IMG/VR virus record: IMGVR_UViG_2778261673_000009
Source: a virus
Taxonomy: Duplodnaviria > Heunggongvirae > Uroviricota > Caudoviricetes
DNA: 23,750 nucleotides
Strand: one strand, 5' to 3'
Made by a program: the position numbers and the translations under genes. This document shows positions 1 through 20,319 of this stretch, one piece after another (the stretch's first letter is position 1; every line of letters starts with the position of its first letter). Below the pieces are notes generated by a model, which was not told the origin of the DNA, made no database searches, and saw nothing but the letters and a program-made list of their open reading frames with translations.

Positions 1-411
1 ATGCCTGCCCCCGTCGTCCTGATCCTTGCGGCCGGGCGTGGAGAGCGCTTTCTCGCCTCCGGGGGAAATACCCATAAGTGTATCGGCTGGCGTCAGTCCC
101 CGGAGGTTGCGCCTTATCGCTGGCCATTTGAAGAAAACGGGAGAACTTTCGACCTTGCGATTGAACCGCAGATTACGACTAATGATCTGCGTCTGATGTT
201 GAGGCTGGCTCTTGCCGGCGGAGGAATAACAATTGCCACTCAGGAAACTTTCAGGCCATATATTGAAAGCGGTAAGCTTGTATCGCTGCTTGATGACTTT
301 CTTCCACAATTTCCGGGCTTCTATCTGTATTTCCCACAGCGTCGCAATATTGCACCAAAGCTCCGCGCCCTGATTGACTACGTCAAAGAATGGCGGCAGC
401 AATTGGCTTAA
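1..411 (+). CDS. LysR-family transcriptional regulator, C-terminal effector-binding part; 5' end lies outside the window
   Basis: ORF runs from the window edge to a stop at 409-411. The translation has the look of a LysR substrate-binding domain C-terminus (LRLALAGGGITIATQETF...GKLVSLLDDFLP). G+C resembles the chromosome, not the AT-rich cargo. Taken as chromosomal flank. Confidence 0.6.
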   Translation: MPAPVVLILAAGRGERFLASGGNTHKCIGWRQSPEVAPYRWPFEENGRTFDLAIEPQITTNDLRLMLRLALAGGGITIATQETFRPYIESGKLVSLLDDFLPQFPGFYLYFPQRRNIAPKLRALIDYVKEWRQQLA

Positions 412-545
412 ATGTCTGCACCTGCACTGCCTGATGTCAGAACAGTATTTTGATGAATTGCCAAGGTTACAATGGCACAAATACGGCACAGGAGGAAACG
501 TGGTGTATTTAAATATGGGGTAACTCTTTGATTTTAATGGTGCGA

Positions 546-563
546 TAATAGGAATGAATATTA
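546..563. repeat. Putative attachment-site core, junction copy next to crr (ATGGTGCGATAATAGGA)
   Basis: 17/18-bp direct repeat with 11873-11890 (ATGGTGCCGATAATAGGA). The two copies sit exactly where a P4-like prophage should end: just outside crr and just upstream of int. Confidence 0.45.
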
Positions 564-660
564 AAATCTAAAGCATTGATTTATAACAGATAATTATATT
601 CAAAAAATATAACTATACACATATCTATACACACTGCGCGCATCGCTTGTTTTTTACACA

Positions 661-980
661 ATTAAAAGTAAGAAAAAAGTTTTTTTTCGAAAGAACTGTT
701 CACACTGTTCACCTTTCTGTTTTCTCCTTTTATTTCAGCATTATAGGTGGTGAATAATGGGTGAAGGGTGAACATTCGATTCTTCACCTCCGGCATTCTG
801 CCGGTGTGACTCATACCGGTGATTAATCCCCCGTACTGAAATCACACAGGGAGAAAAAAGTTTTTTTTTGATTTGATTGTTCACACTGTTCACCTTTCAT
901 TTTTCTCTTTTAATTTCAGTGTGATAACGGATGAATACACGGTGAAGGGTGAACAGTTGATTGTTCACCTTCGGGGAATT
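661..980. repeat. crr-like cis replication region: two direct repeats of about 120 bp carrying TGTTCACC/GGTGAACA octamers
   Basis: Two near-identical blocks (about 678-795 and 858-975), each with GTTCACACTGTTCACCTTTC...GGTGAAGGGTGAACA...TTCACCT. The octamer matches the P4 alpha-binding type I iteron. The position downstream of alpha is as in P4. Confidence 0.7.
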
Positions 981-987
981 CAGGGAT

Positions 988-1012
988 GAAAAAAGACCGG
1001 CAGATGCCGGTC
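988..1012 (-). terminator. Rho-independent terminator downstream of alpha
   Basis: Perfect hairpin GACCGGC-AGAT-GCCGGTC (995-1012) followed on the minus strand by a run of six T (plus-strand A run 989-994), 17 nt after the alpha stop. Confidence 0.6.
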
Positions 1013-1028
1013 AGATGAGTCATGAGGG

Positions 1029-3362
1029 TCAGGTTGTTGCAGGGTCGTCACATTTTGGCAGCCAGTCGCCGTAGCTTTCCTCTTTCAGCGTCAGGTTGGT
1101 CTGTATCCCCTGTTTGGTATGGCGCTTCTCGTAATTCAGTCCGTATTCCTTCAGCATCACCGGCAGCCCCAGCCCGAACATTTTCAGACTGAGTACATTC
1201 CGGTAGCCGTTTGCCTCCATGTAGGCCAGATAGGCGTGATAGAGGTATTTACGGTAATTGCGCGGGATGATACTGGCGTTCCCCATATACATGCCGCTGG
1301 TCTGCGGCAGGGTTTCCAGATAGCCGATAAAATCAAACGTCGGGTCGGCATCCCGTTTGATGTTCAGCGCCTCGTCTGAGTTCTGCTGGGACTGAAGCAG
1401 TGACCGGGCGAGCATCGGGTCGCTGAACTTCTGCATCAGGTGACGCACGATGACCGCCAGCTCGCGGGTGATTTTGTCCTTGAGCTGCGGGTCGCGCTCC
1501 TGCGGGGCTATCTGTTCCGGGAAGTGAATAATCACCCGCCGGCGTGACACGCCGCCGCTGCGGTCGGTGAAGCGCATCGGGTTATTGTTCACGGCCAGAA
1601 TCACCGCCGGGATATGCGTGGAGTACGCATCCCGGTATTTCGGGTCAACGGACACCGCATCGCCGCCGGTGATGGCCTTGAGTCCGGCTCCGTCGCCGCT
1701 CCATTTTTCCTGGTCCGGCAGGCGTATCAGTGAGAAGCCAGTTAACGCGGCACGTTCACGCGGGGATTCCAGCGTCTCAATGGTGGCCGACGTGGCGTTA
1801 TCCTCCCCGGCCAGCAGGGTGGCTATTTCGGCCATGATACTTTTGCCGCTGCCGCCGGGACCGGTCACCTCCAGAAAGAGCTGCCAGTCGTAGCGGTTTG
1901 CCAGCACCATAAACAGTGCGGCCAGAATTACGTCGCGTTTTTCCGCACGACCACCGGCAGCACGGTCAAGCCAGCGCCAGAACGCGGGGGCGTGGGTTTC
2001 CAGCGTTTCCCCTTCCACCGGCGGGGTGAAATCCACATCGCACAGGGTGCGCATCCAGTGTGACGGACTGTGCGGGTGGAACGTGCCGTTCTGCGTGTCG
2101 AGCACGCCGTTACGAAAGCCAATCAGGCGGCGGGAGGGGGCTTCCTGCTGCGGAATAATCAGCTTCAGGGTGTCCACCACGGAGGCCACCTTCCCGGAGG
2201 AGAACGGCGCACGCAGCCGCTGAAACAGCCCGGCCACATCCCGGGCAAAGTCCTGTGGTGGCAGCACCTTCCAGACACCATTTTCATAACGGGACAGAAG
2301 CTGGCCGTTGGCATCGACCGCGAGCGCCTCGCCGTAATGCTCATAGATACGCATGGCCTTTTCGCTGGTACTCATGGCGGAAAACTCTGCTTCGCTCATG
2401 GTGTCGAACGGGCTTTCAGCCGGTGGCCGGATGGCATCGTAAATGGCCTTACGGGTGGCCTCCCCGCCGTACTGCGTGAAGGCATCATTCCAGTCACCGA
2501 AGACCGGCGGCAGGGCAACAACGCCCTCACACGCATCTGCGGCTGCGGCGGCTTTTTTCTGGCCGTCACCGCTGAGGTCACGGTCTGCGGCAAGGACAAT
2601 CTGACAGGCCGGATGCTTCTGCCGGGCAAGGCTGGCCAGAGAAAGGAGGTTCACGGAAGAAAGCGCCACCATCACCGTTTCACCGGTCAGGTGATGTACG
2701 GTAAGTGCGGTTGCGTATCCCTCCGCTATCCACAGACGTTTTCCGGCCTGATTCTGTCCTTCAAGGGTGTGACAGGTGCCCCTGACCTGTCCGCCTTTCA
2801 GGGTGCGCTTACGGCCGTCAGCACTGATTAACTGAAGGTTAACCAGTTCGCCGCTGTCGTCATACAGTGGCACCACAAGGTCACCGGCGCGCCAGCTCAC
2901 GCCACCGGCTCTGTGTGTGCCGGTCAGCATCCGGCATTCCCGGCCGGGAAAGCCCTTGCGGGTCAGGTAGGCGTTACCGGTTCCGGGACGGGTTTTTGCC
3001 ATCAGGGTTTGTGCCAGTGCGGCGGCGTTCTTCCGGGCGGCTTCTGTTTCAGCAACGGCGGCGGCCGTCACTGCCGGGTCAGCCGGGGGCAGACTGCCGG
3101 TCACGGCAGCCACCTTTGTGGCCGCGTCGGACGGGGAAACACCAAACACCTTTTCAACCAGTTTCAGGCCGTCACCGGCACCACACTGATTGCAGTACCA
3201 GGTGCCGCGCCCCTCCCTGTCATCAAAACGGAAGCGGTCACTCCCGCCACAGACCGGACAGGGCTGATGACGGTTCTTCAGCACCTGAATCCCCAGCGCC
3301 GGGAGAATACGCGGCCAGTGGCCGAGCGCATGGCTGACGGTGGCGGTTACGTTCATTTTCAT
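1029..3362 (-). CDS. alpha: P4 alpha-type replication protein (primase-helicase)
   Basis: 777-aa ORF, the same length as P4 alpha. N-terminal Cys-rich zinc-binding primase segment (CPVCGG...YCNQCG), flanked by both TGTTCACC iteron clusters. Plus-strand ORFs inside it are treated as antisense artefacts. Confidence 0.9.
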   Translation of the reverse strand: MKMNVTATVSHALGHWPRILPALGIQVLKNRHQPCPVCGGSDRFRFDDREGRGTWYCNQCGAGDGLKLVEKVFGVSPSDAATKVAAVTGSLPPADPAVTAAAVAETEAARKNAAALAQTLMAKTRPGTGNAYLTRKGFPGRECRMLTGTHRAGGVSWRAGDLVVPLYDDSGELVNLQLISADGRKRTLKGGQVRGTCHTLEGQNQAGKRLWIAEGYATALTVHHLTGETVMVALSSVNLLSLASLARQKHPACQIVLAADRDLSGDGQKKAAAAADACEGVVALPPVFGDWNDAFTQYGGEATRKAIYDAIRPPAESPFDTMSEAEFSAMSTSEKAMRIYEHYGEALAVDANGQLLSRYENGVWKVLPPQDFARDVAGLFQRLRAPFSSGKVASVVDTLKLIIPQQEAPSRRLIGFRNGVLDTQNGTFHPHSPSHWMRTLCDVDFTPPVEGETLETHAPAFWRWLDRAAGGRAEKRDVILAALFMVLANRYDWQLFLEVTGPGGSGKSIMAEIATLLAGEDNATSATIETLESPRERAALTGFSLIRLPDQEKWSGDGAGLKAITGGDAVSVDPKYRDAYSTHIPAVILAVNNNPMRFTDRSGGVSRRRVIIHFPEQIAPQERDPQLKDKITRELAVIVRHLMQKFSDPMLARSLLQSQQNSDEALNIKRDADPTFDFIGYLETLPQTSGMYMGNASIIPRNYRKYLYHAYLAYMEANGYRNVLSLKMFGLGLPVMLKEYGLNYEKRHTKQGIQTNLTLKEESYGDWLPKCDDPATT

Positions 3363-3376
3363 GGTGTTGTTCTCCT

Positions 3377-3697
3377 TCAGTGCAGTACCGGCGCTTTTAT
3401 GTGACGGGCACAGAGTTCATCCATCACAACCAGCCCGAGAAAGGACAGCGACGGCGCGGCCTTCAGGGGGCCGGATTCCATTAAATCTTCCAGCAGGGCA
3501 CAGGCTATCTGACGCCCTTTTTCCTCACCGTGCTGGCGCAGATAAAAGCCTTCCAGCTCAGCGGCGATGGCCGCCTCCAGTGACTCAAGGGTGAGATGCG
3601 GGTAGCGGTGCTGACGTTCGCACACGGTCAGCCAGGCACAGGCGACAGCGCGACGGTAAAGGGCAGCGCGTAAGACGGGCGGTAAGGGTGTTTTCAT
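3377..3697 (-). CDS. P4 orf106-like protein
   Basis: 106-aa ORF immediately upstream of alpha, matching the P4 orf106 position and length. Confidence 0.6.
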
Positions 3698-3832
3698 TTG
3701 CTTTCCTCCCTGTGACAGATGACTGCATTCCGTGCCGGTTGCATTAACTGATAAGGCATATCTGCGTCTCCTGAAGACGTGCGTATCCCTGCGCGAATAC
3801 GCACATTTAATTTTTCGGGTGTCGTTTTTTAA

Positions 3833-4288
3833 TTACAGATAATTGCGGTAACTGTTATCCGGGGTGGTTTCCGGGTCAGGCTCCGTGCGGGGAATTTCCC
3901 GCCATTCCCGCGCCACCGGTGCTGCCCGGCTGACCGGAACAGTGTCCTGCGGGTAAATATCCAGATATTTTTCCCGCCATTTCTGTAATTCCGGGTCTCC
4001 GGCCATTTCTTTCAGTACCGCATGCCGGTTTACGGGGCTGCGTTTAAACAGGTCAGGACGGTCACAGGTAAATTCCCGCAGAAAACGCCCCAGCGGGATG
4101 TCTGTGGTGCGTCCGTCAGCGAGGATACGCACAAGGATACTGAATTTACGGCGGTACGGGTTCCAGACAATGTCCGGGCAGCGGTACGGCATTTCCCACG
4201 GAATACCGTCTTCCAGAATGCCGACCACGGCCACATCGGGAAAACCGGCAGAACGGTAAATCTCACCGGGCTGGGGAAAATCAAACAT
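3833..4288 (-). CDS. P4 orf151-like protein
   Basis: 151-aa ORF in the P4 orf151 position, co-directional with alpha. Confidence 0.6.
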   Translation of the reverse strand: MFDFPQPGEIYRSAGFPDVAVVGILEDGIPWEMPYRCPDIVWNPYRRKFSILVRILADGRTTDIPLGRFLREFTCDRPDLFKRSPVNRHAVLKEMAGDPELQKWREKYLDIYPQDTVPVSRAAPVAREWREIPRTEPDPETTPDNSYRNYL

Positions 4289-4568
4289 GCGTCCTGTCTC
4301 CCCGGTCTTTCTGCTGGGCGAGAAAATCGCGGCACAGGCCTTTGGCTTTCAGCTCATTCAGCACAAAATCAATATCTTCATTCAGGTAGCTGAAAATATG
4401 CGGAATGTAGAGCTGATGCAGGCCGGAGAGTTCACGGTGAATCAAATCACCCCCAACAAACCGGGATACGGCGCTGGCGCGGTTGAGCTTATGGTAAGCC
4501 TCAATGCTGAGGTGTTCACGGGCGTCATGACGCGCTGAGACGGTCTGAGGGGCTTTTTTATTACGCAC
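4281..4568 (-). CDS. Epsilon-like small protein (95 aa, GTG start) in the P4 left operon
   Basis: The 190-aa ORF in the track has no credible start. An in-frame GTG at 4568 is preceded by GGAGG with a 6-nt spacer and gives a 95-aa product overlapping the orf151 start. The name is by synteny only. Confidence 0.4.
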
Positions 4569-4758
4569 GGGACACCTCCACCACCGGCAGACGGGCAGCA
4601 AGGGAGAGCACATAGTCACGGACAAGGGAACGGCGGGCGCTGCGTTCATCACCGGCGACGGTGCGAAGCATACAGATACGGGGATGACGGTCTGCGCGAC
4701 GGACAGCCGCAAACACAAAGACAAATTCAGGGTGTGAGGGGGTAAGGGTTGTAGCCAT
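4561..4758 (-). CDS. Small left-operon protein, 65 aa (kil-like position)
   Basis: ATG at 4758 preceded by AGGAGG (about 8-nt spacer). It is the 3' part of a longer track ORF with no credible upstream start. It ends 4 nt before the epsilon-like GTG. Confidence 0.4.
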
Positions 4759-5156
4759 GATGGCAGCCTCCTGTGAATAGCAAATAACGCTATCGCCGGA
4801 GTTCTCACGCTCGATGGCGATAGCCCAGACGGGGGTGAGAATACCGGCTTCACAGGATACCGGCCAGCCCGGAGGCTGCCCCGCCTGAGCTACCATTGAC
4901 TCTGCGGCATAATGAGCGGACGCGGGCAGGATGCACGGAATGCCATCTGCACGACTGACCACACACCACACCATAATCTGGCGCTCTGTGGCATTGATTG
5001 CGACACAAAAAAAGACGCGTGGCGCGTCATATGTCGCCTGTGAATTGCTCGGGTTCTCACGCCCGGCTGCCGATTTTGCGGCAGCGGAAAAACTATATCC
5101 GCAAATGCCGGAAAAAGGCAAGCCAGAAAAAGGGAGTTTTTGCAGAGCGGGCATCA

Positions 5157-5423
5157 TCATGCGTCGTACCCCCGTTTGCGTCCGGCAATGCGCCCGGCCA
5201 TCCATGCGGTGACTTCAGAGTGCAGCCAGGCCACATTTTTACCGCCAAGACTCACCTGCGGCGGAAATTCCCCCTTACGGATGAGTTCATAGATGGTCGA
5301 GCGTGACAGGCCGCACAGGTGCATCACTTCCGGAAGACGTAAAAAACGCTCCTGTGTGATGTCCGGCAGCGGCATCAGTGGCGTCACAGGGGCGGGAGAC
5401 GGGGAAGAAAAAACAGCTTGCAT
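5157..5423 (-). CDS. vis: AlpA/Vis-family DNA-binding regulator (88 aa)
   Basis: 88 aa with an AlpA-type helix-turn-helix ([28 protein letters not shown]). Matches the length and position of P4 orf88/vis, the first gene read leftward from the late-left promoter region. Confidence 0.8.
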
Positions 5424-5525
5424 CGGGCTACCTCGTTAATGTCCATACAGCACCGGATAAGTCCGTCCGGCTTCGGGTAGCGTTTTATTTTGTGAATATT
5501 TTCAGCAGACGCAACAGGGGGGATT

Positions 5526-5543
5526 TGTTCCGGCAGCCTTACA
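5526..5543 (-). promoter_or_regulatory. TGT-N12-ACA dyad (Delta/Ogr-type activator site), late-left promoter-like
   Basis: TGTTCCGGCAGCCTTACA, centred about 110 bp upstream of the vis start. This is the dyad typical of P2/P4 late promoters. Confidence 0.4.
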
Positions 5544-5567
5544 ATGCTTGTGTGTTTTTTGTTCATC

Positions 5568-5606
5568 TCCACTTAAAGTCATTTAAAGCCACTTAAAGCA
5601 ATTCGT
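5568..5606. repeat. Three tandem copies of CACTTAAAG-like motif
   Basis: CCACTTAAAGT CATTTAAAG CCACTTAAAG, read directly, between the late-left dyad and the iteron cluster. Confidence 0.4.
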
Positions 5607-5694
5607 AATTTTTATAGTGAAATACAAATCGTTTTTTCTTATTCATTCCCGGCGAATTAATAAAAACAAACAGTAATAAACAGCACAAAAAGCC

Positions 5695-5820
5695 CATCAA
5701 CGGGTGAACAGTGGTGAACAGACGGTGAACAGTCATTACTTCGATTGTTCACCCTTTAACTTACTGTATTACTTATCTTTTTTCTTATGGTGAACAGAGG
5801 TGAACAGAGGTGAACAGTAA
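5695..5820. repeat. ori-like iteron cluster: seven GGTGAACA/TGTTCACC octamers
   Basis: GGTGAACA at 5703, 5713, 5724, 5789, 5799 and 5809, with an inverted TGTTCACC at 5746. It lies about 4.8 kb from the crr-like repeats, comparable to the P4 ori1-crr spacing. Confidence 0.7.
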
Positions 5821-5895
5821 AATATAAAAAAACAAACAGTAAGCCGGTTTTTCCTGCGACCTTTTCCTGGCTTGCCGGTCTGAGGATGAGTCTCC

Positions 5896-5913
5896 TGTGT
5901 CAGGGCTGGCACA
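5896..5913 (+). promoter_or_regulatory. TGT-N12-ACA dyad, Psid-like late promoter activator site
   Basis: TGTGTCAGGGCTGGCACA, centred about 80 bp upstream of the sid ATG. Confidence 0.45.
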
Positions 5914-5985
5914 TCTGCAATGCGTCGTGTTGTTGTCCGGTGTACGTCACAATTTTCTCAACCTGAAGTGACGAGGAGCCGGAAA

Positions 5986-6720
5986 ATGTCTGACAACACC
6001 ATCCCTGAATATCTGCAACCCGCGCTGGCACAACTGGAAAAGGCCAGAGCCGCCCATCTTGAGAACGCCCGCCTGATGGATGAGACCGTCACGGCCATTG
6101 AACGGGCAGAGCAGGAAAAAAATGCGCTGGCGCAGGCCGACGGAAACGACGCTGACGACTGGCGCACGGCCTTTCGTGCAGCCGGTGGTGTCCTGAGCGA
6201 CGAGCTGAAACAGCGCCACATTGAGCGCGTGGCACGCCGGGAGCTGGTACAGGAATATGACAATCTGGCCGTGGTGCTGAATTTTGAACGTGAACGCCTG
6301 AAAGGGGCGTGTGACAGCACGGCCACCGCCTACCGGAAGGCACATCATCACCTTCTGAGTCTGTATGCAGAGCATGAGCTGGAACACGCCCTGAATGAAA
6401 CCTGTGAGGTGCTTGTCCGGGCAATGCATCTGAGTATCCTGGTACAGGAAAATCCGCTCGCCAACACCACCGGCCATCAGGGCTACGTCGCACCGGAAAA
6501 GGCTGTCATGCAGCAGGTGAAATCATCGCTGGAACAGAAAATTAAACAGATGCAAATCAGCCTCACCGGCGAGCCGGTTCTCCGGCTGACCGGACTGTCA
6601 GCGGCAACACTCCCGCACATGGATTATGAGGTGGCAGGCACACCGGCACAGCGCAAGGTGTGGCAGGACAAAATAGACCAGCAGGGTGCAGAGCTTAAGG
6701 CCAGAGGACTGCTGTCATGA
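5986..6720 (+). CDS. sid: Sid capsid size-determination (external scaffold) protein
   Basis: Taking the ATG at 5986 (GAGGAG 7 nt upstream) gives 244 aa starting MSDNTIPEYLQPALAQLEK, matching P4 Sid in length and N-terminus. Track ORFs antisense to it are rejected. Confidence 0.85.
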   Translation: MSDNTIPEYLQPALAQLEKARAAHLENARLMDETVTAIERAEQEKNALAQADGNDADDWRTAFRAAGGVLSDELKQRHIERVARRELVQEYDNLAVVLNFERERLKGACDSTATAYRKAHHHLLSLYAEHELEHALNETCEVLVRAMHLSILVQENPLANTTGHQGYVAPEKAVMQQVKSSLEQKIKQMQISLTGEPVLRLTGLSAATLPHMDYEVAGTPAQRKVWQDKIDQQGAELKARGLLS

Positions 6721-7217
6721 TTTACTGCCCGTCGTGTGGACATGTTGCTCACACCCGCCGCGCACATTTCATGGACGATGGCACCAAGATAATGATTGCA
6801 CAGTGCCGGAATATTTATTGCTCTGCGACATTTGAAGCGAGTGAAAGCTTTTTCTCTGACAGTAAAGATTCAGGAATGGAATACATTTCAGGCAAACAGA
6901 GATACCGCGATTCACTGACGTCAGCCTCCGGCAGTATGAAACGCCCGAAAAGAATGCTTGTTACCGGATATTGTTGTCGGAGATGTAAAGGCCTTGCACT
7001 GTCAAGAACATCGAGGCGTCTGTCTCAGGAAGTCACCGAGCGTTTTTATGTGTGCACGGATCCGGGCTGTGGTCTGGTGTTTAAAACGCTTCAGACCATC
7101 AACCGTTTCATTGTCCGCCCGGTCACGCCGGACGAACTGGCAGAAAGCCTGCATGAAAAACAGGAACTGCCGCCAGTACGGTTAAAAACACAATCATATT
7201 CGCTGCGTCTGGAATGA
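6717..7217 (+). CDS. delta: Delta late-gene transcriptional activator (duplicated Ogr-like zinc finger)
   Basis: 166 aa, as P4 Delta, with two Cys-rich Ogr-like halves (CPSCGH...C....C and CCRRC...C.DPGC). ATGA overlap with the sid stop. Confidence 0.85.
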   Translation: MIYCPSCGHVAHTRRAHFMDDGTKIMIAQCRNIYCSATFEASESFFSDSKDSGMEYISGKQRYRDSLTSASGSMKRPKRMLVTGYCCRRCKGLALSRTSRRLSQEVTERFYVCTDPGCGLVFKTLQTINRFIVRPVTPDELAESLHEKQELPPVRLKTQSYSLRLE

Positions 7218-7290
7218 GGGCTGCCGGTTAACCCCGGCCGTCGCCGCACACCGTATTTTTATTCTTCAGCATGATGAGAAAGAGATAACG

Positions 7291-7863
7291 ATGGAAAGCA
7301 CAGCCTTACAGCAGGCCTTTGACACCTGTCAGAATAACAAAGCAGCATGGCTGCAACGCAAAAATGAGCTGGCAGCGGCCGAACAGGAATACCTGCGGCT
7401 TCTGTCAGGAGAAGGCAGAAACGTCAGTCGCCTGGACGAATTACGCAATATTATTGAAGTCAGAAAATGGCAGGTGAATCAGGCCGCCGGTCGTTATATT
7501 CGTTCGCATGAAGCCGTTCAGCACATCAGCATCCGCGACCGGCTGAATGATTTTATGCAGCAGCACGGCACAGCACTGGCGGCGGCACTGGCACCGGGGC
7601 TGATGGGCTACAGTGAGCTGACGGCCATTGCCCGAAACTGTGCCATACAGCGTGCCACAGATGCCCTGCGTGAAGCCCTTCTGTCCTGGCTTGCGAAGGG
7701 GGAAAAAATTAATTATTCCGCACAGGATAGCGACATTTTAACGGCCATCGGATTCAGGCCTGACGCGGCTTCGGTGGATGACAGCCGTGAAAAATTCACT
7801 CCTGCGCAGAACATGATTTTTTCGCGTAAAAGTGCGCAACTGGCATCACATCAGTCTGTGTAA
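7291..7863 (+). CDS. psu: Psu polarity-suppression / capsid-decoration protein
   Basis: 190 aa, as P4 Psu, and the last gene of the sid-delta-psu operon. Confidence 0.85.
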   Translation: MESTALQQAFDTCQNNKAAWLQRKNELAAAEQEYLRLLSGEGRNVSRLDELRNIIEVRKWQVNQAAGRYIRSHEAVQHISIRDRLNDFMQQHGTALAAALAPGLMGYSELTAIARNCAIQRATDALREALLSWLAKGEKINYSAQDSDILTAIGFRPDAASVDDSREKFTPAQNMIFSRKSAQLASHQSV

Positions 7864-7898
7864 AACTCCCCGAAAATCCGCCCGTTTTTACTGAAAAA

Positions 7899-7940
7899 AG
7901 CCATGCATCGATAAGGTGCATGGCTTTGCATGCGTTTTCC
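7899..7940 (+). terminator. Terminator-like hairpin after psu
   Basis: Perfect 9-bp stem AGCCATGCA / TGCATGGCT (7899-7907 and 7917-7925) with a 9-nt loop, followed by TTGCATGCGTTTTCC. The T tract is imperfect. Confidence 0.45.
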
Positions 7941-8027
7941 TGCCTCATTTTCTGCAAACCGCGCCATTCCCGGCGCGGTCTGAGCGCGTCAGTACAACTG
8001 CATTAAAACCGCCCCGCAAAGCGGGCG

Positions 8028-8046
8028 GGCGTGGCGGGGGGAGCAT
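8028..8046. other. cos-like cohesive-end site
   Basis: GGCGTGGCGGGGGGAGCAT matches the P2/P4 19-nt cohesive end (GGCGAGGCGGGGAAAGCAC, recalled from memory) at 15/19 positions. It lies about 165 bp past psu, as in P4, next to a GC-rich inverted repeat (CCGCCCCGC/GCGGGCGG). Confidence 0.55.
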
Positions 8047-8129
8047 TGCGCGCTAAGGCTGATATTATAATTTTCTTTAATTCTATTTGGTATTTTGGCT
8101 TTATTCGTCAGAAGGAACTTTTAGAAATA

Positions 8130-8157
8130 GACCACTACAATGGATTGTAGCGGTCTG
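8130..8157 (-). terminator. Inverted-repeat hairpin downstream of the cargo operon
   Basis: AGACCACTACAAT-GG-ATTGTAGCGGTCT (12/13-bp stem), 9 nt after the partner gene stop. The following minus-strand tract ATTTCTAAAAG is only weakly U-rich. Confidence 0.3.
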
Positions 8158-8165
8158 CATGATAT

Positions 8166-8906
8166 CTAGCGTTGCATTTCAGTTACTATGAAATTTTCTT
8201 CTGTAATAGAATTCATTATCTCAAAGTACAATTCTTCAGGTTGAATAAACGCCAACTCTTTGCAAAGGTTGACAATGGTATCACTATAAGTGATACCCAT
8301 CCGAGGATTGAAAAGCTCAAATCTCTTGATGTTTCTTTTGTTTTTTGAGTAAAAGTTTAAAGTGAAATATATTAGCACCTGTCTAAGATCGTAAACACTA
8401 AACTTCCTATCTCCTGATTTTATTTCCACAAGAACATTTGAATAATAAATATCGCCATATGAATTATTTATTACTCCGCATCCATCGAATTGTGGAGACA
8501 CTTCAATTTGGTTTTCCATTCCATATCGAGACAAAATGTTTCTTGCTATTTCCCTTATGGCATTGTACTCAACCATGCTTAAGGGTAGCTTGAAGTTAGA
8601 ACCGTAAGCGAACCGCTGTAGATATTCTTTTGTTTTTTCAAAAACAACCTGAAAATCAGCATTATGGAAGATATCATGTGCTGAAAGAATATTTCTGTCT
8701 AACGAATCATTCTGTATTGCCCTATATAAATTAAATGCGCACTCATTGACAAAGACGTTATTTGACCTATTAGCGCAGTCATCTAGAGGAGGATAAACGT
8801 CCTCGATGAGACTGCCGTTAATGATGCGTATGAAATTATTAGCATTTGGAAGCAATTGATTCCAAAATGAAGTGAATTTTCGAGAAAACGTTAATTCAGA
8901 TATCAT
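8166..8906 (-). CDS. Hypothetical 246-aa protein, partner of the reverse-transcriptase gene; possible PD-(D/E)xK-type nuclease
   Basis: AT-rich ORF whose ATG overlaps the RT stop (ATGA). It contains GDIYYSNVLVEIKSG, that is D-x9-E-x-K. The nuclease reading is motif-level inference only. Confidence 0.6.
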   Translation of the reverse strand: MISELTFSRKFTSFWNQLLPNANNFIRIINGSLIEDVYPPLDDCANRSNNVFVNECAFNLYRAIQNDSLDRNILSAHDIFHNADFQVVFEKTKEYLQRFAYGSNFKLPLSMVEYNAIREIARNILSRYGMENQIEVSPQFDGCGVINNSYGDIYYSNVLVEIKSGDRKFSVYDLRQVLIYFTLNFYSKNKRNIKRFELFNPRMGITYSDTIVNLCKELAFIQPEELYFEIMNSITEENFIVTEMQR

Positions 8907-10531
8907 AGCGCATCCTCAAGATTTCTTGCGGTATGCCTTTTACTTGCCCAATCCCTGTAAATCACCTCTACAAAGTTGAATGTTTTCTTATTATGCTCTC
9001 TCCAGTGCCGTCCTTCATCACCTAAGATGTAACTGGAAACGATCAATAGTCTTCTCTGCAACGGATGCATTGCAGAGAAATTTTTTTTGATATCAGAAAG
9101 CCATGCGTAAGAATTAATTTTTGCCATTGACTGTGTAACTATGTTCTTGACTAAGATGCTTTCTGGATTGTTATTGTATATTTCACTAAGGATTAGGGTG
9201 GATTTTTCTGAATTTTCTTTTGAGAGCATTCGGGCTACATAGGCTAAGTTGAGCTCAGTACTCAAAATATATGAATCTTGTTTAATTAGTGCAGTTATTT
9301 TATCAAGAATAATATCTTTGGTTTCTGTGCTTAATTTTTGCCAGTTGGAGTTAGCTACTTGAATTATAGTTGTAAATATTGGATATAACTCATGCAAGTT
9401 ATTAAACATTACTTTGAAAGCACTACTTATTATTTCATCTGATGTTGCTGAGAATGCCTTTATCAAATGCTTGCTAAAAGATTGGTTAATTTTTGATTTT
9501 TGTAACTCACTACTCAGCATAGCTAACAAGTCAAAATCTTTTAAAGATTCCTTTATCTCTTCATATTCCTCTATCGCATTTGCTGAGTAAGGATCGAATC
9601 TTATAGGAAGACTCATAAATTTAGCCTTCATAGGAGATTCTTCATCTTCATCATTACCATGCAACTTAGCTTTAGTTACTGAAAGGAACTCTTCTTTAGT
9701 AACAATATTGGTTTTTTGTTTCTGTAAAGTTAGCCCTTCATTTTCCATCAGTTTTTTACTAAGCAAAGTTAAAATCTTATGAGCATCCTCTCTAGAGTTA
9801 CAAAAAATAACAAAGTCGTCGACATAACGCTTATAGTTGATTCTATTCATAGACAATAATTTATCAATAGAATCTAGAGCTAGTTCTGCTAATATTCTAG
9901 AGGCAGGACATCCAACTGGTACTCCATATGATTTTGTTTCACTAAATGTCTGTAGTAATTTCTTGATTTTCCCAGAGTAATCTTTATTGGGGTCTACTCT
10001 ATCTAACGCATTTTCTAAACGGTGGTGATAAATACGCGGATAGAAATCTGCTATATCGCATGTAAGTACATACTTTATTTCATCGTTAGAACATTCAGAG
10101 ATACTGTCTTCTTGATATTTTCTCCAAGAGATCTCTTTATCAAAAAGAGAACCATCAGCAAGGTTTGGTTTAAAGCGATATGAATAAACCTGCGTTTTAG
10201 TAGATCTATTCCTTTCAATATCATCAGCGATTTTTAAAACTAACCCAAGAAAAAAAGCATTCCAGAATGGATCAATTTGGGTCGCCCACCTGTAACCATA
10301 ATAACCAATACTTGAAAAGCTATTAATTATGTTTGGTGGAATCTCGATCCTTTTATTTTCAAAGTCATTAAATGTTTGCATTAATGCAGTTTTTACTTTC
10401 TCCTTATCATCTTCAAATAACCGACTTTCAAATGGGTAAGGGAAAATATCTGTATCGCCGTGCTTTATAATATTTTCCAATGCAAGCTCAAAGCAATTTT
10501 CTAGTTTACTACTATCAAACTCGTTACTCAT
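8903..10531 (-). CDS. Reverse-transcriptase-domain protein with a long alpha-helical C-terminal extension (Abi/DRT-like architecture)
   Basis: 542 aa with RT motifs read directly: CDIADFYPRIYHHRL (motif A-like), YGVPVGCPASRILAELAL (motif B-like) and YKRYVDDFVIF (YxDD catalytic motif, encoded near 9811-9822). About 250 C-terminal residues lie beyond the RT core. Strongly AT-rich relative to its neighbours. Confidence 0.85.
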   Translation of the reverse strand: MSNEFDSSKLENCFELALENIIKHGDTDIFPYPFESRLFEDDKEKVKTALMQTFNDFENKRIEIPPNIINSFSSIGYYGYRWATQIDPFWNAFFLGLVLKIADDIERNRSTKTQVYSYRFKPNLADGSLFDKEISWRKYQEDSISECSNDEIKYVLTCDIADFYPRIYHHRLENALDRVDPNKDYSGKIKKLLQTFSETKSYGVPVGCPASRILAELALDSIDKLLSMNRINYKRYVDDFVIFCNSREDAHKILTLLSKKLMENEGLTLQKQKTNIVTKEEFLSVTKAKLHGNDEDEESPMKAKFMSLPIRFDPYSANAIEEYEEIKESLKDFDLLAMLSSELQKSKINQSFSKHLIKAFSATSDEIISSAFKVMFNNLHELYPIFTTIIQVANSNWQKLSTETKDIILDKITALIKQDSYILSTELNLAYVARMLSKENSEKSTLILSEIYNNNPESILVKNIVTQSMAKINSYAWLSDIKKNFSAMHPLQRRLLIVSSYILGDEGRHWREHNKKTFNFVEVIYRDWASKRHTARNLEDAL

Positions 10532-11708
10532 TCACATTCTCCTTAATAAAAATATAATCTGAATACCACTGCATCATATCACGGCGTTTATCAATATATT
10601 GAGCATGATTATACGTACCTCTAATATTATTCTTATCTATATGAGCAAGCTGTATTTCTATCCAAGCCGAATCATATCCTTTTTCGTGGAGGATAGTAGA
10701 TAAGGAATGTCGAAATCCATGACCAGTAAGTTTTCCACCATAACCAATACGCTTGATAACTTGGTTAATACTCGCCTCACTCATAGGCTTGTTCGGATCG
10801 TTCCGCCCCGGAAAAACATAACTATACTTCCCTGTCATCATCTTGAGTTCATTTAGCAAATCTAACGCTTGAGTCGACAAAGGCACAAGGTGTGATCTGC
10901 GCATTTTCATCCTTTCAGCAGGAATTTCCCAAATAGCGTTATCTAAATCAAATTCTGACCATAATGCCGCACGTAATTCGATGGTTCTAACACCTGTAAT
11001 CATGAGCAATTTCGTGGCAATCAGGACAAGCCGACTTCCGGTATATCCGTTTAAGGCGCGAAGAAAATCAGGTATCTCATTAGCCTTTAAGAACGGGAAA
11101 TGATTTGATTGGTGTACATTGAGGGCGCTTGAAAGATCCGCAGCAGGGTTAAACTCAGCCCTTCCAGTAGCAATGGCATAGCGGAAAACTTCTGAGCATC
11201 GCTGCCGAACTTTGCGCATTTTTTCTAATGCACCGCGCTTTTCGATTTTACGCAGCACATTAAGCAGTTCTAGCGGTTTAATCTCTCCCACTGGCCTTGT
11301 TCCCACATAAGGAAAAATGTCGTTCTTAAACGCTTCCATGATGTCTGATGCATATCCCGCCGACCATTTGGTAGACTTCTGTTGATGCCACTCTCTGGCT
11401 ATCTTTTCGAAGGCGTTCTCTGACTCTGTTTGCAGAGCCAGCTTTTGCTCTTTTCGAACCTCACTAGGGTTCTTTCCTTCTGCCACAAGTTTTCGAGCTT
11501 CATCACGACGGGAACGAGCATCAGCAAGAGTGATCGTTGGGTAAACACCAAGCGAGATCATTTTGGGTTTACCGGCATAGCGATAACGAAATCGCCAGCT
11601 TTTACTTCCATTTGGCTCTACAAGTAAAGACAACCCTTGCCCATCCCCAAGTGTATAGGCTTTAGCTTCAGGTTTAGCACGGCGAATCTGCATATCATTT
11701 AGGGGCAT
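10524..11708 (-). CDS. int: P4-family tyrosine integrase
   Basis: 394 aa with a typical P4-type integrase N-terminus (AKPEAKAYTLGDGQGLSLLVEPNGSKSWRFRYRY) and a C-terminal catalytic region (HGFRHSLSTIL...). It is adjacent to the putative att core. The true start may be the second Met, 15 nt downstream. Confidence 0.9.
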   Translation of the reverse strand: MPLNDMQIRRAKPEAKAYTLGDGQGLSLLVEPNGSKSWRFRYRYAGKPKMISLGVYPTITLADARSRRDEARKLVAEGKNPSEVRKEQKLALQTESENAFEKIAREWHQQKSTKWSAGYASDIMEAFKNDIFPYVGTRPVGEIKPLELLNVLRKIEKRGALEKMRKVRQRCSEVFRYAIATGRAEFNPAADLSSALNVHQSNHFPFLKANEIPDFLRALNGYTGSRLVLIATKLLMITGVRTIELRAALWSEFDLDNAIWEIPAERMKMRRSHLVPLSTQALDLLNELKMMTGKYSYVFPGRNDPNKPMSEASINQVIKRIGYGGKLTGHGFRHSLSTILHEKGYDSAWIEIQLAHIDKNNIRGTYNHAQYIDKRRDMMQWYSDYIFIKENVNE

Positions 11709-11872
11709 GTGTATAGAATTCCAAAATCGAACAGGAACATATACATAATCCTATACACATTTAGTACTGGATTCTACTGGAAAGTTATGGACTAATACGA
11801 ACAGTAAAAACAAAAAATCTTTTATAAAACAGTGCGGTTATGGATAAATACGGATGTTTGAAGAAGTGGAGA

Positions 11873-11890
11873 TGGTGCCGATAATAGGAG
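11873..11890. repeat. Putative attachment-site core, junction copy next to int (ATGGTGCCGATAATAGGA)
   Basis: Direct repeat of 546-563, about 165 bp upstream of the int start. The nearby sequence carries TATACACA-type motifs (11712-11760), also seen inside the other end (620-641), as expected for integrase arm sites. Confidence 0.45.
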
Positions 11891-12033
11891 TAAAACACTC
11901 GATTAATCTCGTGTTAATGCCATCACCTACGACTATTACTAATTGATTGAATCTTATAGAAAAATAATCATTTTCTATGCGTCACAATCAATTTTCACAT
12001 TACAAACGCTCCGACACTTTAGCCGGAGATTTT

Positions 12034-13311
12034 ATGAGATACAAGCCTAACCAATACTTAATCTGTGATTCTTACGGTAACTACTATTTAAGGATCACGC
12101 TGCCTGTGTATATGCAGCCCTTTTTTGAAGGAAAAAGGACGTTTGTCAGAAGTCTACACACAAGTAATCTTCGTGTTGCACGTAGAAAGCGTGATCAGAT
12201 TGCAGATGAATACCATTGCTTACGGGAGAGTGTTGCCCCTGTAAACAGCACAATAGAAAACACGCTGGAACTGTTACGCAGTAAGGCTAAATACGCCAAA
12301 ACAGCTACCAGAGTGCAAGATACAGCGTCTTCGTGTCCGTCATTGCTTAAAATTCTTGAAATCTACCTGACAATTAACAGCACGAAGAAGAAGCCAGCCA
12401 CTTTAGCTAAGGCAAGAAAAGCGGTAGAGATGTTTCTCTCCTACCGTAAAAAGCCTGATATTGCATTGCAAGATGTAAGCCGCACCACTGTTACAGGCTG
12501 GATTGAACACATGCAAAAAACTCTTTCACAACAATCAATTGCAAATTATATCAGCCCAATGGCCCAGCTATGGGAGTTAGCTTCATCACGTTACCACGAT
12601 GCGCCAGAAAGGGCGCTCTCCCCCTGGCGAGGGCATAGGCTTGATGTGGCACAAAGTAGAGAGAGCTACGAGGCATTTTCTAACAAAGAGCTATTGCAGG
12701 TGTTGCAAGTATTTTCCGGTAATTCAGCAGAAAACAAAGAAATGACGGCTTTGTGTCTTATCGGTTTATATACAGGTATGCGGATCAATGAGATAGCAAG
12801 TCTCACAATAGACGATGTGAAAGAGATCGAAGGTGTGCTGTGTTTTGAAATCACACAGGGAAAGACGAAAGCAGCGGCACGTGTTGTGCCTGTACATAGC
12901 CTTATCACTCCGTTGGTGTTGTCGCTGCGTGAAAAGCCTCACAATGGCTTTTTGTTCTATCACGCCAGCATTACAGAGCGTGCTGATGGTAAACGTTCCA
13001 CGTGGCATACGCAGAGATTTACAAGAGCTAAACGAAAGGCTTTAGGGGAAAAGGGAACAGAAAGGAAGGTGTTTCATTCTCTGAGACACGGAGTAGCACA
13101 GCTTCTTGATCGAAATCAAATTCCAGAAGACAGGATCGCCCTTCTCCTGGGCCATACACGCGGCAATACAGAAACATTCCGCACATATAGCAAAAATGCA
13201 GCTTCTCCAGTAGAGCTTAAAAAATATATTGAGCTTTTACGCTACCCTGAAATAGAGAAAGGCTTATCAATCAATAAAAAATCAAATTTAAGGCGTAAAA
13301 CAACGCCATAG
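12034..13311 (+). CDS. Tyrosine recombinase / phage-type integrase of a second element
   Basis: Catalytic motifs visible: TGMRINEI, HSLRHGVAQLL and LLGHTRGNTETFRTYS. The track's longest ORF begins at 11977, but the ATG at 12034 has a GGAG Shine-Dalgarno 6 nt upstream and is preferred. Confidence 0.8.
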   Translation: MRYKPNQYLICDSYGNYYLRITLPVYMQPFFEGKRTFVRSLHTSNLRVARRKRDQIADEYHCLRESVAPVNSTIENTLELLRSKAKYAKTATRVQDTASSCPSLLKILEIYLTINSTKKKPATLAKARKAVEMFLSYRKKPDIALQDVSRTTVTGWIEHMQKTLSQQSIANYISPMAQLWELASSRYHDAPERALSPWRGHRLDVAQSRESYEAFSNKELLQVLQVFSGNSAENKEMTALCLIGLYTGMRINEIASLTIDDVKEIEGVLCFEITQGKTKAAARVVPVHSLITPLVLSLREKPHNGFLFYHASITERADGKRSTWHTQRFTRAKRKALGEKGTERKVFHSLRHGVAQLLDRNQIPEDRIALLLGHTRGNTETFRTYSKNAASPVELKKYIELLRYPEIEKGLSINKKSNLRRKTTP

Positions 13312-13392
13312 ACGTAATAAGGAGGCTTCAACATAGATTGGTAGCCTCTTTTATAATTACATCGTTACAGAGCGTTTCATAGGCGTTTAAGG

Positions 13393-14070
13393 CTATTGTT
13401 TAAATACTGGTGTTACAACGTCTTGCCCTGGGCTTTTTTGATTTTTCTGTTCTGTTGTATTTACCTGCATTTTAACCTGTCCCCCTACAGATTTATTTGG
13501 TGCTGTTTTTACAGCAATAGCATTAGTGGTGGCCTTAGAGACAAGACGAATTTGCTCAAAATCAAGAGTAAACAATATGCTTTCGCTTGCTTCTTCTTCG
13601 TAAGACATGCCAACTAACACAACGTTGTCATAATTTTTTAACTCAGTGACAAGTAGGAAAGGTTGGCGACTGTCCATCAACTGATTTAGGTATTCAAGCA
13701 TAAGCATACGTCGATTGCCGTTAATTCCAGCATTCTTAATCATATCAGGATTGAGCTTCAATACGGTTTCAGAGATACGCCCTTGTAATGTGAACTTGTT
13801 ATTCCGTATTTGAACATGATCACTAACTTCTGATCCTGATTCGACAGCATAGCTTGTAACGTCTGCATTTCTGCTAACTCTCGTCGATTCCACGCTATCA
13901 AATGATAATGCCTGGTAGTCATTGTAAGCAGCATTTGCACCACTGCCGAGATTAGAGGTAATGATCGCAAAGCCGTTACCCCCTTTAGTTGTTCTACCGT
14001 TGCTATCGTTGCTTGTGCTGTTGATTTTCGCCTCAGTCGGGCGACCAATGGTTAACGGACCCATTGCCAT
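13393..14070 (-). CDS. Hypothetical 225-aa protein, last gene of the structural-type operon
   Basis: ORF with AAGGA about 9 nt upstream of the ATG, co-directional with the upstream genes. No recognisable motif. Confidence 0.55.
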   Translation of the reverse strand: MAMGPLTIGRPTEAKINSTSNDSNGRTTKGGNGFAIITSNLGSGANAAYNDYQALSFDSVESTRVSRNADVTSYAVESGSEVSDHVQIRNNKFTLQGRISETVLKLNPDMIKNAGINGNRRMLMLEYLNQLMDSRQPFLLVTELKNYDNVVLVGMSYEEEASESILFTLDFEQIRLVSKATTNAIAVKTAPNKSVGGQVKMQVNTTEQKNQKSPGQDVVTPVFKQ

Positions 14071-14117
14071 AATTTGTAATCCTTATTTAAGGGGGCTAAA
14101 CAGCCCCACAGTGATGA

Positions 14118-15959: not shown

Positions 15960-15993
15960 ACTGATTGTTTCCCTGTATTATGATTGTTGTTTG

Positions 15994-16191
15994 TTATTGT
16001 TTTTTAGAACAATAATATTGGATTGCTTCGAAAGTGCTGCACCCGGTCTGAAACACACGCTGCCGCACATTATTTGCATCAATTGAAAGCATTCTGCATA
16101 AGGCACTGACATTGATTATTGAGTCATCGCTAATAGCTGCCAGTTCTTTTACAGATTTAAGAATTAATGCCTGTGAATTTTCTGTGTTCAT
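15994..16191 (-). CDS. Small hypothetical protein (65 aa)
   Basis: ORF with a weak ribosome-binding site between the capsid-like gene and the 613-aa gene. Confidence 0.3.
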   Translation of the reverse strand: MNTENSQALILKSVKELAAISDDSIINVSALCRMLSIDANNVRQRVFQTGCSTFEAIQYYCSKKQ

Positions 16192-16355
16192 TGGTTTTCT
16201 CTCACATATATATTTTTATTTGGATTTGTAGACAGTAGAAAAACAAAAAGGGCAAAGAGATTCGTTACTGTATTTGCGCCTACAGGTTAGTTAATCTCCT
16301 TACCCTTATTGCCCCCCGATTATTTCCAGACGTAGGGGAACGTCTTTAACACTTT

Positions 16356-17384: not shown

Positions 17385-17400
17385 TATTATTTATTCCTTC

Positions 17401-17775
17401 TTAAGATGTGAAAACAGAGTGGAAGCCTTCAAGCTGGAAGCCTTTAGCAGCGAGAGCTGCAATAGCAGCTTCTTTTACAGCGCCTTCGGCATTCAGGGCA
17501 TCAGCTTTGATGCAAACGAGTCCGGCATTAGCACGAAGCACGTTAACTGTTTTATTTGAATCAGCAGTTACGAAGTCAGACACAACGACAAGAACATCAG
17601 CGCCGCTAACATATTTAGCGCCGGATGAATCAATGAGGTCGCCGCACGTTACATCTTGTGCAAGTGCTGCAAATTTTTTGCTTTCTACAGCCGCGTAAGG
17701 GTCGGTTGCATAGCTCACTACGTCAGTGATGCTTTTACGATGTGGGAAAACATCGCTTAATTTTAAAATAGCCAT
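17401..17775 (-). CDS. Putative head-decoration-like protein (124 aa)
   Basis: Small Ala/Val/Gly-rich protein immediately upstream of the capsid-like gene. Strong AAGGA ribosome-binding site. Start overlaps the stop of the upstream gene (TAATG). Function assigned by position and size only. Confidence 0.4.
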   Translation of the reverse strand: MAILKLSDVFPHRKSITDVVSYATDPYAAVESKKFAALAQDVTCGDLIDSSGAKYVSGADVLVVVSDFVTADSNKTVNVLRANAGLVCIKADALNAEGAVKEAAIAALAAKGFQLEGFHSVFTS

Positions 17776-17984: not shown

Positions 17985-18013
17985 AAAATAACGATTCCGT
18001 TATGTTCCGAGTA

Positions 18014-18062
18014 ATAAAAAGCCCCAGGCTATAAGAGGTTCAATCAACAATAGCAAGGGGCT
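18014..18062 (-). terminator. Terminator-like hairpin preceding the structural-type operon
   Basis: GCCCC(AG)GCTAT...ATAGC(AA)GGGGC stem-loop followed on the minus strand by a T run (plus-strand AAAAA at 18016-18020). It sits between the early-type genes and the capsid-like genes. Confidence 0.3.
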
Positions 18063-20310: not shown

Positions 20311-20319
20311 TTATTCTCC

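Follow-up and report, generated by a model that had tools for sequence, protein, structure and literature searches.

The stretch of DNA analysed here (the window, 23,750 nucleotides) very probably contains, at positions 537-11891, a P4-type satellite prophage whose attachment site is the 3' end of thrW, the E. coli gene for tRNA-Thr(CGU), and which is the distal unit of a two-island array in which the intact thrW is placed by synteny. An earlier note, made from the same sequence, had described an apparently intact P4-like satellite prophage bounded by a direct repeat, and both the empty-site junction and the full-length P4 ORFs described below are in agreement with this. The features of the satellite and its surroundings are listed in Table 1.

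Table 1. Features of the satellite, its att sites and its flanks (positions in the window)
Feature	Position	Strand	Evidence and remarks
Chromosomal flank: end of yagP LysR-family remnant (ORF 1-411) plus 125 bp	1..536	+	contiguous with thrW at 100% in empty-site genomes, with the 125 bp immediately downstream of it
Distal att core (attR in tRNA orientation)	537..553	-	17-bp copy: thrW 3' end plus one following base, without one G/C; minus strand TCCTATTATCG-CACCAT
att arm, crr side	554..673	.	no P4 similarity; tandem putative arm-type sites CTATACACA at 613-621 and 625-633
crr (cis replication region)	674..974	+	two 120-bp repeats with type-1 iterons; aligned to P4 4291-4590
alpha primase-helicase, 777 aa	1029..3362	-	99.1% identical to P4 alpha
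orf106	3377..3697	-	100% identical to P4 ORF106
orf151	3833..4288	-	100% identical to P4 ORF151
epsilon (helper derepression protein), 95 aa	4281..4568	-	100% identical to P4 epsilon over 95 aa
cI immunity RNA (C4 antisense RNA)	4813..4900	-	Rfam RF01695 at 74.9 bits (gathering score 45)
Leader with C4/cI RNA targets (c4-a1b1) and isrK-type RNA	5008..5098	-	Rfam RF03163 and RF01394, both above gathering scores
vis (AlpA-type excisionase and regulator), 88 aa	5157..5423	-	98.9% identical to P4 Vis
ori iteron region	5569..5816	.	aligned to P4 9176-9413; one 10-bp iteron-containing insertion compared with P4 (5788-5797, TGGTGAACAG)
sid (capsid size determination), 244 aa	5986..6720	+	99.2% identical to P4 Sid; part of a longer ORF of 266 aa
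delta (Ogr/Delta late-gene transactivator), 166 aa	6717..7217	+	98.2% identical to P4 Delta
psu (polarity suppression and capsid decoration), 190 aa	7291..7863	+	97.9% identical to P4 Psu
cos site	7995..8054	+	cohesive-end sequence GGCGTGGCGGGGGGAGCAT at 8028-8046; similarity to P4 stops here
DRT8-associated PD-(D/E)XK protein, 246 aa, hotspot cargo	8166..8906	-	PADLOC RTasPDDEXK, E = 5.5e-69; identical to WP_000622599
DRT8 reverse transcriptase, 542 aa, hotspot cargo	8903..10531	-	PADLOC Drt8, E = 4.9e-166, full profile; Pfam RVT_1; identical to WP_000064054
Integrase of the satellite, 394 aa, P4 family, thrW-specific clade	10524..11708	-	39% identical to P4 Int
att arm, int side	11709..11871	.	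CTATACACA at 11708-11716 (minus strand, overlaps int start codon) and 11751-11759
Proximal att core, common to satellite and neighbouring island	11872..11891	-	20-bp copy: thrW 3' end (19 nt, ACTCCTATTATCGGCACCA) plus following T; no tRNA body beyond
Second integrative island of the thrW array	11892..23750	.	about 13 kb; runs off the window; lies between satellite and thrW
Unrelated integrase of the neighbouring island	11977-13311	+	gene starts 86 bp from the shared core

The thrW attachment site and the tandem array

The direct repeat bounding the satellite is real, but not at 546-563 and 11873-11890, where it had been placed: the left copy is found at 537-553 (ATGGTGCGATAATAGGA, which equals ATGGTGC-GATAATAGGA) and has one C fewer than the right copy at 11872-11889 (ATGGTGCCGATAATAGGA). 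The two copies thus differ by an indel, and a mismatch-only 18-mer search returned one copy, while an indel-tolerant fuzzy search combined with reading of the sequence returned both. The exact 10-mer common to the two copies (GATAATAGGA) occurs twice, against 0.06 occurrences expected, and the core to core distance of 11,335 bp agrees with the size of about 11.3 kb given previously. The reverse complement of the core is the 3' end of thrW (its last 16-19 nt, as read in the related locus L001 and in K-12), so that the likeness to a tRNA 3' end first suspected from CGGCACCA was well founded, and the repeat represents the end of thrW duplicated through site-specific recombination.

A synthetic junction, consisting of window positions 237-536 followed by thrW and proA, was identical to real empty sites (yagP'-thrW-proA) at 100% over 599 bp, which independently confirms the boundaries; in 948 genomes a single place covered at least 80% of this query. 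This is the comparison with an empty site which the earlier note had called for, and it identifies the site as an intact thrW. The tRNA scan of the junctions proposed alongside it gave no tRNA gene anywhere in the window with either ARAGORN or Rfam, and the statement that neither junction has a tRNA body therefore holds within the window. The missing tRNA is no anomaly, since the satellite is part of a tandem array of islands and, on both syntenic genomes compared (L001 and L006), the window stops 607 bp before thrW is reached. These two genomes contain a third core and an intact thrW, and are 96-98% identical to the window at its end. A genome identical to the window as a whole was absent from the collection. 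By synteny, the intact thrW of the source genome would be located approximately 0.6 kb past the right end of the window, and the order of the array would be yagP', P4-like element, 13-kb island, thrW and proA.

Four states of the thrW site were seen in other E. coli, these being empty, with the satellite alone, with the neighbouring island alone, and with the tandem array. In strains C21-2 and 2013C-4974 (loci L002 and L003) the P4-like element directly abuts an intact thrW, and the position of the proximal core is taken by the 3' end of that gene, with the same two cores bounding the P4-like element in strains lacking the second island. For the junction of the neighbouring island alone with the yagP flank, coverage of the query reached 80% or more in 278 genomes, and CUVET24-CCU22 has an identical tandem array with thrW at the far end. 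The flank itself is annotated as a LysR substrate-binding remnant adjoining paoD in L001, L002 and L003, and as yagP in K-12. In the window and the syntenic genomes a copy of the thrW 3' end stands at either side of each unit, and each unit is found alone elsewhere; there is no tRNA body at 11872-11891 because the second island separates this remnant from the intact thrW. Insertion of the satellite first or of the second island first yields an identical product, the middle junction included.

The P4 backbone and the defence hotspot

From crr to cos the satellite is 98.2% identical to P4 at the nucleotide level over 7,354 bp (P4 4291-11624) with only three small insertions, and the P4 core ORFs are all full length and encode proteins which are 97.9-100% identical to those of P4 in blastp comparisons. 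The core set of int, psu, delta, sid, alpA/vis, epsilon and alpha is complete and in P4 order, and the annotations of L001, L002 and L003 agree with this. Comparison with the P4 proteins upheld the ORF lengths which the earlier note had equated with those of P4 (alpha 777, orf106, orf151, Vis 88, Sid 244, Delta 166 and Psu 190), and crr, ori iterons and cos are also present as reported there, with crr and ori aligned to P4 and cos in the form of a variant. The c4-a1b1 element in the leader scored 49.5 bits with Rfam, above its gathering score. Based on the near-identity to P4, lysogeny would be held by the cI RNA, and a P2/186-type helper would bring about Vis- and Int-dependent excision; alpha would then carry out replication from ori and crr, with cross-activation of the helper by epsilon and Delta, and Sid and Psu would build small capsids, with packaging at cos.

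The satellite has the gene order, cI RNA, crr, ori and the int-attP-crr layout with arm repeats in common with P4 (NC_001609 / X51522), whereas the DRT8 pair and a P4-family integrase with 39% identity to P4 Int take the place of the gop-beta-cII-int segment of P4. The att arms of the two are unrelated, the satellite has one extra ori iteron, and the cohesive end differs at 4/19 positions. This cohesive end matches P4/P2 at 15/19 and the 186-type at 17/19 positions, with P4, an Eganvirus and the cosR of fiAA91-ss as partners in the alignment, and the cos variant is identical in L001, L002 and L003 and has an approximately 90% match to the cos sites of the P2 family. P4 integrates at leuX, in agreement with the position of intB next to leuX in K-12, while the attachment site of the present satellite is thrW. 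Retronphage phiR73 is a P4-like element with a reverse transcriptase, integrated in selC; it has a retron (Ec73) and selC where the present satellite has DRT8 and thrW.

Between cos and int lies the known defence hotspot of P4, occupied in this satellite by a predicted DRT8 defence pair. The combination of WP_000064054 and WP_000622599 has at least 124 listings as a P4-encoded locus in Table S1A (PMC8628076; PMC9122126). The P4-like satellites with psu/cos-int hotspots described by de Sousa & Rocha (PMC8628076) and Rousset et al. (PMC9122126) have the same core genes and the same hotspot position, and there are no differences of substance, other than that the PADLOC name DRT8 is newer than the Pfam label 'RVT_1 + hypothetical'. 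The satellite is a clean example of the modular exchange of int-att and hotspot on a nearly unchanged P4 backbone.

Integrase, att arms and mobility

The 394-aa integrase contains Arm-DNA-bind_3, Phage_int_M and Phage_integrase domains, all above the Pfam cut-offs. All 23 of its close relatives (at least 84% identity, from approximately 20 genera) have a thrW core at the same spacing, about 163 bp upstream, with an intact tRNA-Thr(CGU) beside 16 of these 23, and relatives with 59-63% identity adjoin tRNA-SeC, Gly, Arg or Phe. The distance from core to int start in the satellite is 164 bp, the same as the spacing between tRNA end and int in the relatives. The CTATACACA motif is present in four copies in the window (0.11 expected), all inside the two att arms and in a layout which parallels the arm repeats of P4 attP, and these copies may be arm-type sites bound by the N-terminal domain of the integrase. 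No significant alignment was found between the integrases of the satellite and of the neighbouring island, and since the two are unrelated, each element has its own recombination system, with both using the same tRNA end.

With regard to the site, the earlier note had left open a remnant site, a core common to the neighbouring element, or a non-tRNA site. The first two are both correct, while the third, with the likeness of the core to a tRNA end being coincidental, has next to no probability: although the window is without a tRNA gene, the core coincides with the final 16-19 nt of thrW, the same element abuts the intact gene in other strains, the integrase relatives across genera always adjoin a thrW tRNA end, and a non-tRNA integration site is refuted by the empty-site comparison, where the empty site is intact thrW. 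Hardly more credible is a repeat which belongs solely to the att system of the neighbouring island, with the P4-like element having other, unrecognised boundaries. The right core is indeed also the distal end of that island, which is found alone with the same junction, and the integrase gene of the island is only 86 bp away; however, the left core at 537-553 lies exactly where the empty-site sequence resumes, the P4-like element has the same two cores at its ends in strains without the second island, both the arm repeats and the int spacing go with these cores, and the integrases of the satellite and the neighbour are unrelated. Integration of the P4-type satellite at the thrW 3' end is the reading followed here.

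A further alternative is that the satellite is correctly delimited but immobile: it would be a remnant, domesticated for the sake of its DRT8 cargo, and its imperfect distal core, a cohesive end unlike that of P4 or a poor fit of Vis to Int would block excision or packaging. The distal core does have a 1-nt deletion, the cohesive end differs from that of P2/P4 at 4/19 positions, and Vis is of the P4 type while the int-att module has been exchanged; moreover, half of the distal core of the sister copy in strain 2013C-4974 has gone via a 22-bp deletion, so such decay happens. We nevertheless consider immobility unlikely, as none of the P4 core ORFs is shortened, all having 98-100% identity, the RNA and cis elements are intact, both cores still have identical stretches of 7 and 10 bp in common, and the cos variant is conserved among the copies and has an approximately 90% match to P2-family cos sites. 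The 1-nt deletion itself recurs in L001, L002, Sakai Sp2 and loci L015 and L021, and because Sp2, L015 and L021 are diverged elements of other lineages, it seems to be characteristic of attP in this family and not a sign of damage. The attP core of the family would then carry TTCCTATTATCG-CACCAT, and strand exchange within the last ~7 nt (GCACCAT) would leave the tRNA gene intact, with the deletion ending up in the distal core. The thrW-type P4-like attP seems to have a built-in 1-nt deletion, which would keep strand exchange within the final ~7 nt of the tRNA.

Known elements at thrW and the neighbouring island

A parallel in locus and architecture is prophage Sp2 of E. coli O157:H7 Sakai, annotated as 'P4-like phage', where the order is thrW-Sp1-Sp2-yagP with a partial thrW copy between the units. 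The Sp2 integrase is 90% identical to that of the satellite, and the 1-nt deletion is present in its distal core as well (TTCCTATTATCG-CACCAT). In Sakai the place of the 13-kb island is taken by Sp1, a lambda-like remnant, the cargo of the hotspot is another one and the partial tRNA copy is longer. Sp1 and Sp2 have been described as a compound prophage at thrW (PMC8190617). As Sakai shows the same architecture and the cargo pair is already in the P4 hotspot table, the P4-like element is ordinary and already known, and nothing novel is left for the satellite itself. Its importance beyond correct annotation is small, as one more copy of a catalogued DRT8-carrying P4-like satellite; of more general use is that a missing tRNA beside an att core ending in ...CACCA usually signifies a tandem array or a truncated view, and not a new type of site.

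Similarly, the cryptic prophage CP4-6 of K-12 has thrW as attachment gene, the yagP/paoD flank and a partial thrW copy at its distal end. It differs in being a 34-kb decayed mosaic with a much longer duplicated tRNA segment, and in the location of its unrelated IntF (23% over the catalytic part) at the distal end; IntF was rejected as a relative of either integrase of the array, with only 23-24% identity over the catalytic part.

The right flank of the satellite is another integrase gene (ORF at 11977-13311), as had been recognised before, and the island to which it belongs encodes a distant, though full-length, homologue (25% identity) of the major head protein of rV5-like phages (Phapecoctavirus), a 53%-identical homologue of an rV5-like phage tail protein and a tape-measure-like protein, and contains a 355-bp patch which is 99% identical to one rV5-like phage. 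On these similarities the island might be an undescribed satellite or decoy which exploits or blocks virulent rV5-like phages, a proposal we regard as speculative and rather doubtful; no satellites of rV5-like phages were found in the literature searched. If it were true, the thrW array would contain two elements, each hijacking a helper family unrelated to that of the other. The rV5-like phages (Phapecoctavirus) are virulent phages of ~150 kb.

Occupancy states of the thrW site

No tRNA gene was found in the window with ARAGORN or with Rfam at gathering thresholds. The 18-mer of the direct repeat described in the earlier note had a single match, at 11872-11889, in a search allowing mismatches only, and the left copy, ATGGTGCGATAATAGGA, was read directly in the sequence at 537-553 and is one C short. 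With both copies found at these positions, the repeat is real, but its left copy lies 9-10 bases and its right copy 1 base away from where they had been placed. An exact 10-mer common to both copies occurs twice in the window, versus 0.06 expected. Extended by two bases and read in reverse complement, the right copy is ACTCCTATTATCGGCACCA followed by T, which is the 3' end of the E. coli tRNA-Thr(CGU) gene thrW as read in one related genome and in K-12, and the left copy keeps 16 nt of this 3' end, minus one G/C.

A query for the empty site, consisting of window 237-536 joined to thrW and the proA-side flank of a related strain, matched many complete E. coli genomes with 100% identity over all 599 bp, and thus the left boundary at 536/537 is exact. 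This query was at least 80% covered at one place in 948 genomes, and the annotation at empty sites consists of a LysR remnant, tRNA-Thr and proA, so that the empty-site comparison proposed in the earlier note shows an intact thrW between the LysR remnant and proA. In C21-2 and 2013C-4974, the satellite, with identical cargo and integrase proteins, directly adjoins an intact thrW, and the match to the window ends there at base 11891, within the tRNA. The second island on its own was searched for with another synthetic junction (yagP flank, core, then neighbouring integrase), which was at least 80% covered in 278 genomes, the top matches having 100% coverage in one piece. The tandem order of the window (paoD, yagP', P4-like element, 13-kb island, tRNA-Thr, proA) is present in CUVET24-CCU22 and nine other genomes among the matches listed. 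As empty, satellite-alone, second-island-alone and tandem arrangements were all found, all four states of one attachment site exist. In both CUVET24-CCU22 and SF-088, thrW follows 607 bp after the stretch that matches the final 400 bases of the window, and the window therefore stops short of the tRNA.

To account for the missing tRNA, insertion at a non-tRNA site, at a remnant site or at the att of a neighbouring element had been suggested. A non-tRNA insertion site is ruled out by the thrW-derived core and the intact thrW at the empty site, and the satellite abuts intact thrW in other strains. The other two suggestions were both right, since the right core is a partial thrW copy and the second island starts at this shared core; combined, they are the ordinary explanation of the absent tRNA. 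In SF-088 (locus L006, 6631-13829), only an N-terminal fragment of the P4-like integrase is left beside the shared core, with a vat autotransporter island in place of the rest of the satellite, so the thrW array has undergone further turnover.

The thrW gene is among the most frequently targeted E. coli tRNA genes (PMC7545054). A large share of Enterobacterales genomes carry P4-like satellites, with tandem elements noted (PMC8628076; PMC9122126). In the annotation of the O157 Sakai reference genome, thrW, Sp1 (lambda-like), Sp2 (P4-like phage) and yagP follow one another in this order, and Sp1-Sp2 has been called a compound prophage at thrW (PMC8190617).

P4 backbone, cargo and integrase of the satellite

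Coordinates aside, the description of the element as an apparently intact P4-like satellite between two copies of a short repeat is right. Window 674-8027 is 98.2% identical to P4 4291-11624, with three insertions relative to P4 (Table). None of alpha, orf106, orf151, epsilon, vis, sid, delta and psu is truncated, and their identity to the P4 counterparts is 97.9-100%. Rfam matches include the cI/C4 immunity RNA, its a1b1 targets and an isrK-type RNA. The predicted satellite circle is 11,335 bp, a length that a capsid of P4 size should presumably accommodate. A cos site was identified, with the right-hand P4 sequence extending to the nick, and the likeness to P4 stops just past cos. The cohesive end GGCGTGGCGGGGGGAGCAT shares 15/19 positions with the P4/P2 type and 17/19 with the 186-type end of an Eganvirus, and judged by its sequence is neither of the P2/P4 type (4 differences) nor of the 186 type (2 differences); this variant is kept in three sister copies.

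Features of the satellite, its cores and the neighbouring island
Feature	Position	Description
Insertion 1	crr	one T relative to P4
Insertion 2	1018-1026	9 bp, alpha stop codon to terminator
Insertion 3	5788-5797	10-bp unit adding one type-1 ori iteron relative to P4
vis	5157-5423	98.9% identical to P4 Vis
Cohesive end GGCGTGGCGGGGGGAGCAT	8028-8046	
Integrase and att arms	10524-11889	exchanged relative to P4
CTATACACA tandem pair	60-80 bp from left core	
CTATACACA single copy	113 bp from right core	
CTATACACA inverted copy	over int start codon	
Second island	11892-23750 onward; 29880-43057 in L001 (CUVET24-CCU22)	~13 kb
Patch in Dit-like gene	about 13490-13563	74 bp
Patch at HTH/replication-like ORF	about 20576-20930	355 bp
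Core with 1-nt deletion, satellite	537-553	
Core with 1-nt deletion, locus L090	27515-27531	
Core with 1-nt deletion, locus L015	1333-1349	
Core with 1-nt deletion, locus L021	1320-1336	

Where P4 carries gop-beta-cII-int, the satellite instead has three genes, encoding a 246-aa protein matching PADLOC RTasPDDEXK (E = 5.5e-69), a 542-aa reverse transcriptase matching PADLOC Drt8 (E = 4.9e-166) and an integrase. The reverse transcriptase and its partner are identical to WP_000064054 and WP_000622599, a pair with at least 124 entries in a published table of P4-encoded loci, and the int-psu segment, cos included, is a known P4 defence hotspot (PMC8628076; PMC9122126). The 394-aa integrase has Arm-DNA-bind_3, Phage_int_M and Phage_integrase domains and shares 39% identity with P4 Int; Vis is near-identical to that of P4, while integrase and att arms have been exchanged. 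All four copies of the 9-mer CTATACACA in the window (0.11 expected) are located in the two att arms, in a layout which parallels the annotated arm repeats of P4 attP.

When one genome per species was searched, 245 relatives of the integrase were identified. In all 23 relatives with at least 84% identity, from about 20 genera, the thrW 3' end is located ~163 bp upstream of int (164 bp in the window), whereas relatives at 59-63% identity adjoin tRNA-SeC, Gly, Arg or Phe, which places the integrase in a thrW-specific clade of the P4 family. Intact tRNA-Thr(CGU) is found in 16/23 of the close relatives and only partial copies in the other 7/23, so arrays are common.

The neighbouring island

The second island encodes a 444-aa integrase with DUF6538, SAM-like and catalytic domains, and sequence comparison gave no significant similarity between this and the satellite integrase. 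Two unrelated recombinases therefore use the same tRNA end, and both integrase genes diverge from the shared core. The island also encodes Dit-like, tape-measure-like and capsid-E-like proteins. Among phage proteins, the capsid-like protein best matches the major head proteins of ~150-kb rV5-like (Phapecoctavirus) phages (25% identity, full length), and a tail protein of rV5-like phages shares 53% identity with the Dit-like protein. No terminase or portal is apparent in the island, and we found no paper on an element like it; possibly it is a so far undescribed satellite or decoy of virulent phages. One patch, 99.2% identical to the virulent Phapecoctavirus Mt1B1_P17, spans the N-terminal portions of a 197-aa HTH/replication-like ORF and a 328-aa phage protein together with the sequence upstream of them, and another, inside the Dit-like gene, is 91.9% identical to a Phapecoctavirus genome. 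These two near-identical patches indicate that the island and Phapecoctavirus phages have recently recombined.

A one-nucleotide deletion in the distal core

The distal core carrying the 1-nt deletion is preceded by T and reads TTCCTATTATCG-CACCAT. The deletion recurs in the sister copies of the satellite, in the distal core of Sakai Sp2, which has a 90% identical integrase and different cargo, and in the int-proximal cores of L015 and L021, loci from two other genera carrying relatives of the integrase. This recurrence in diverged P4-like elements of different lineages and genera suggests that the deletion is part of the attP of this family and not a mutation. TTCCTATTATCG-CACCAT would then be the attP form of the core, with strand exchange probably occurring 3' of the deletion, within about GCACCAT, which would leave the tRNA gene intact. 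In the sister satellite of 2013C-4974, a 22-bp deletion (at about 3462 of locus L003, corresponding to window 522-543) has taken away the distal core on its chromosomal side, and this copy is therefore probably locked in place.
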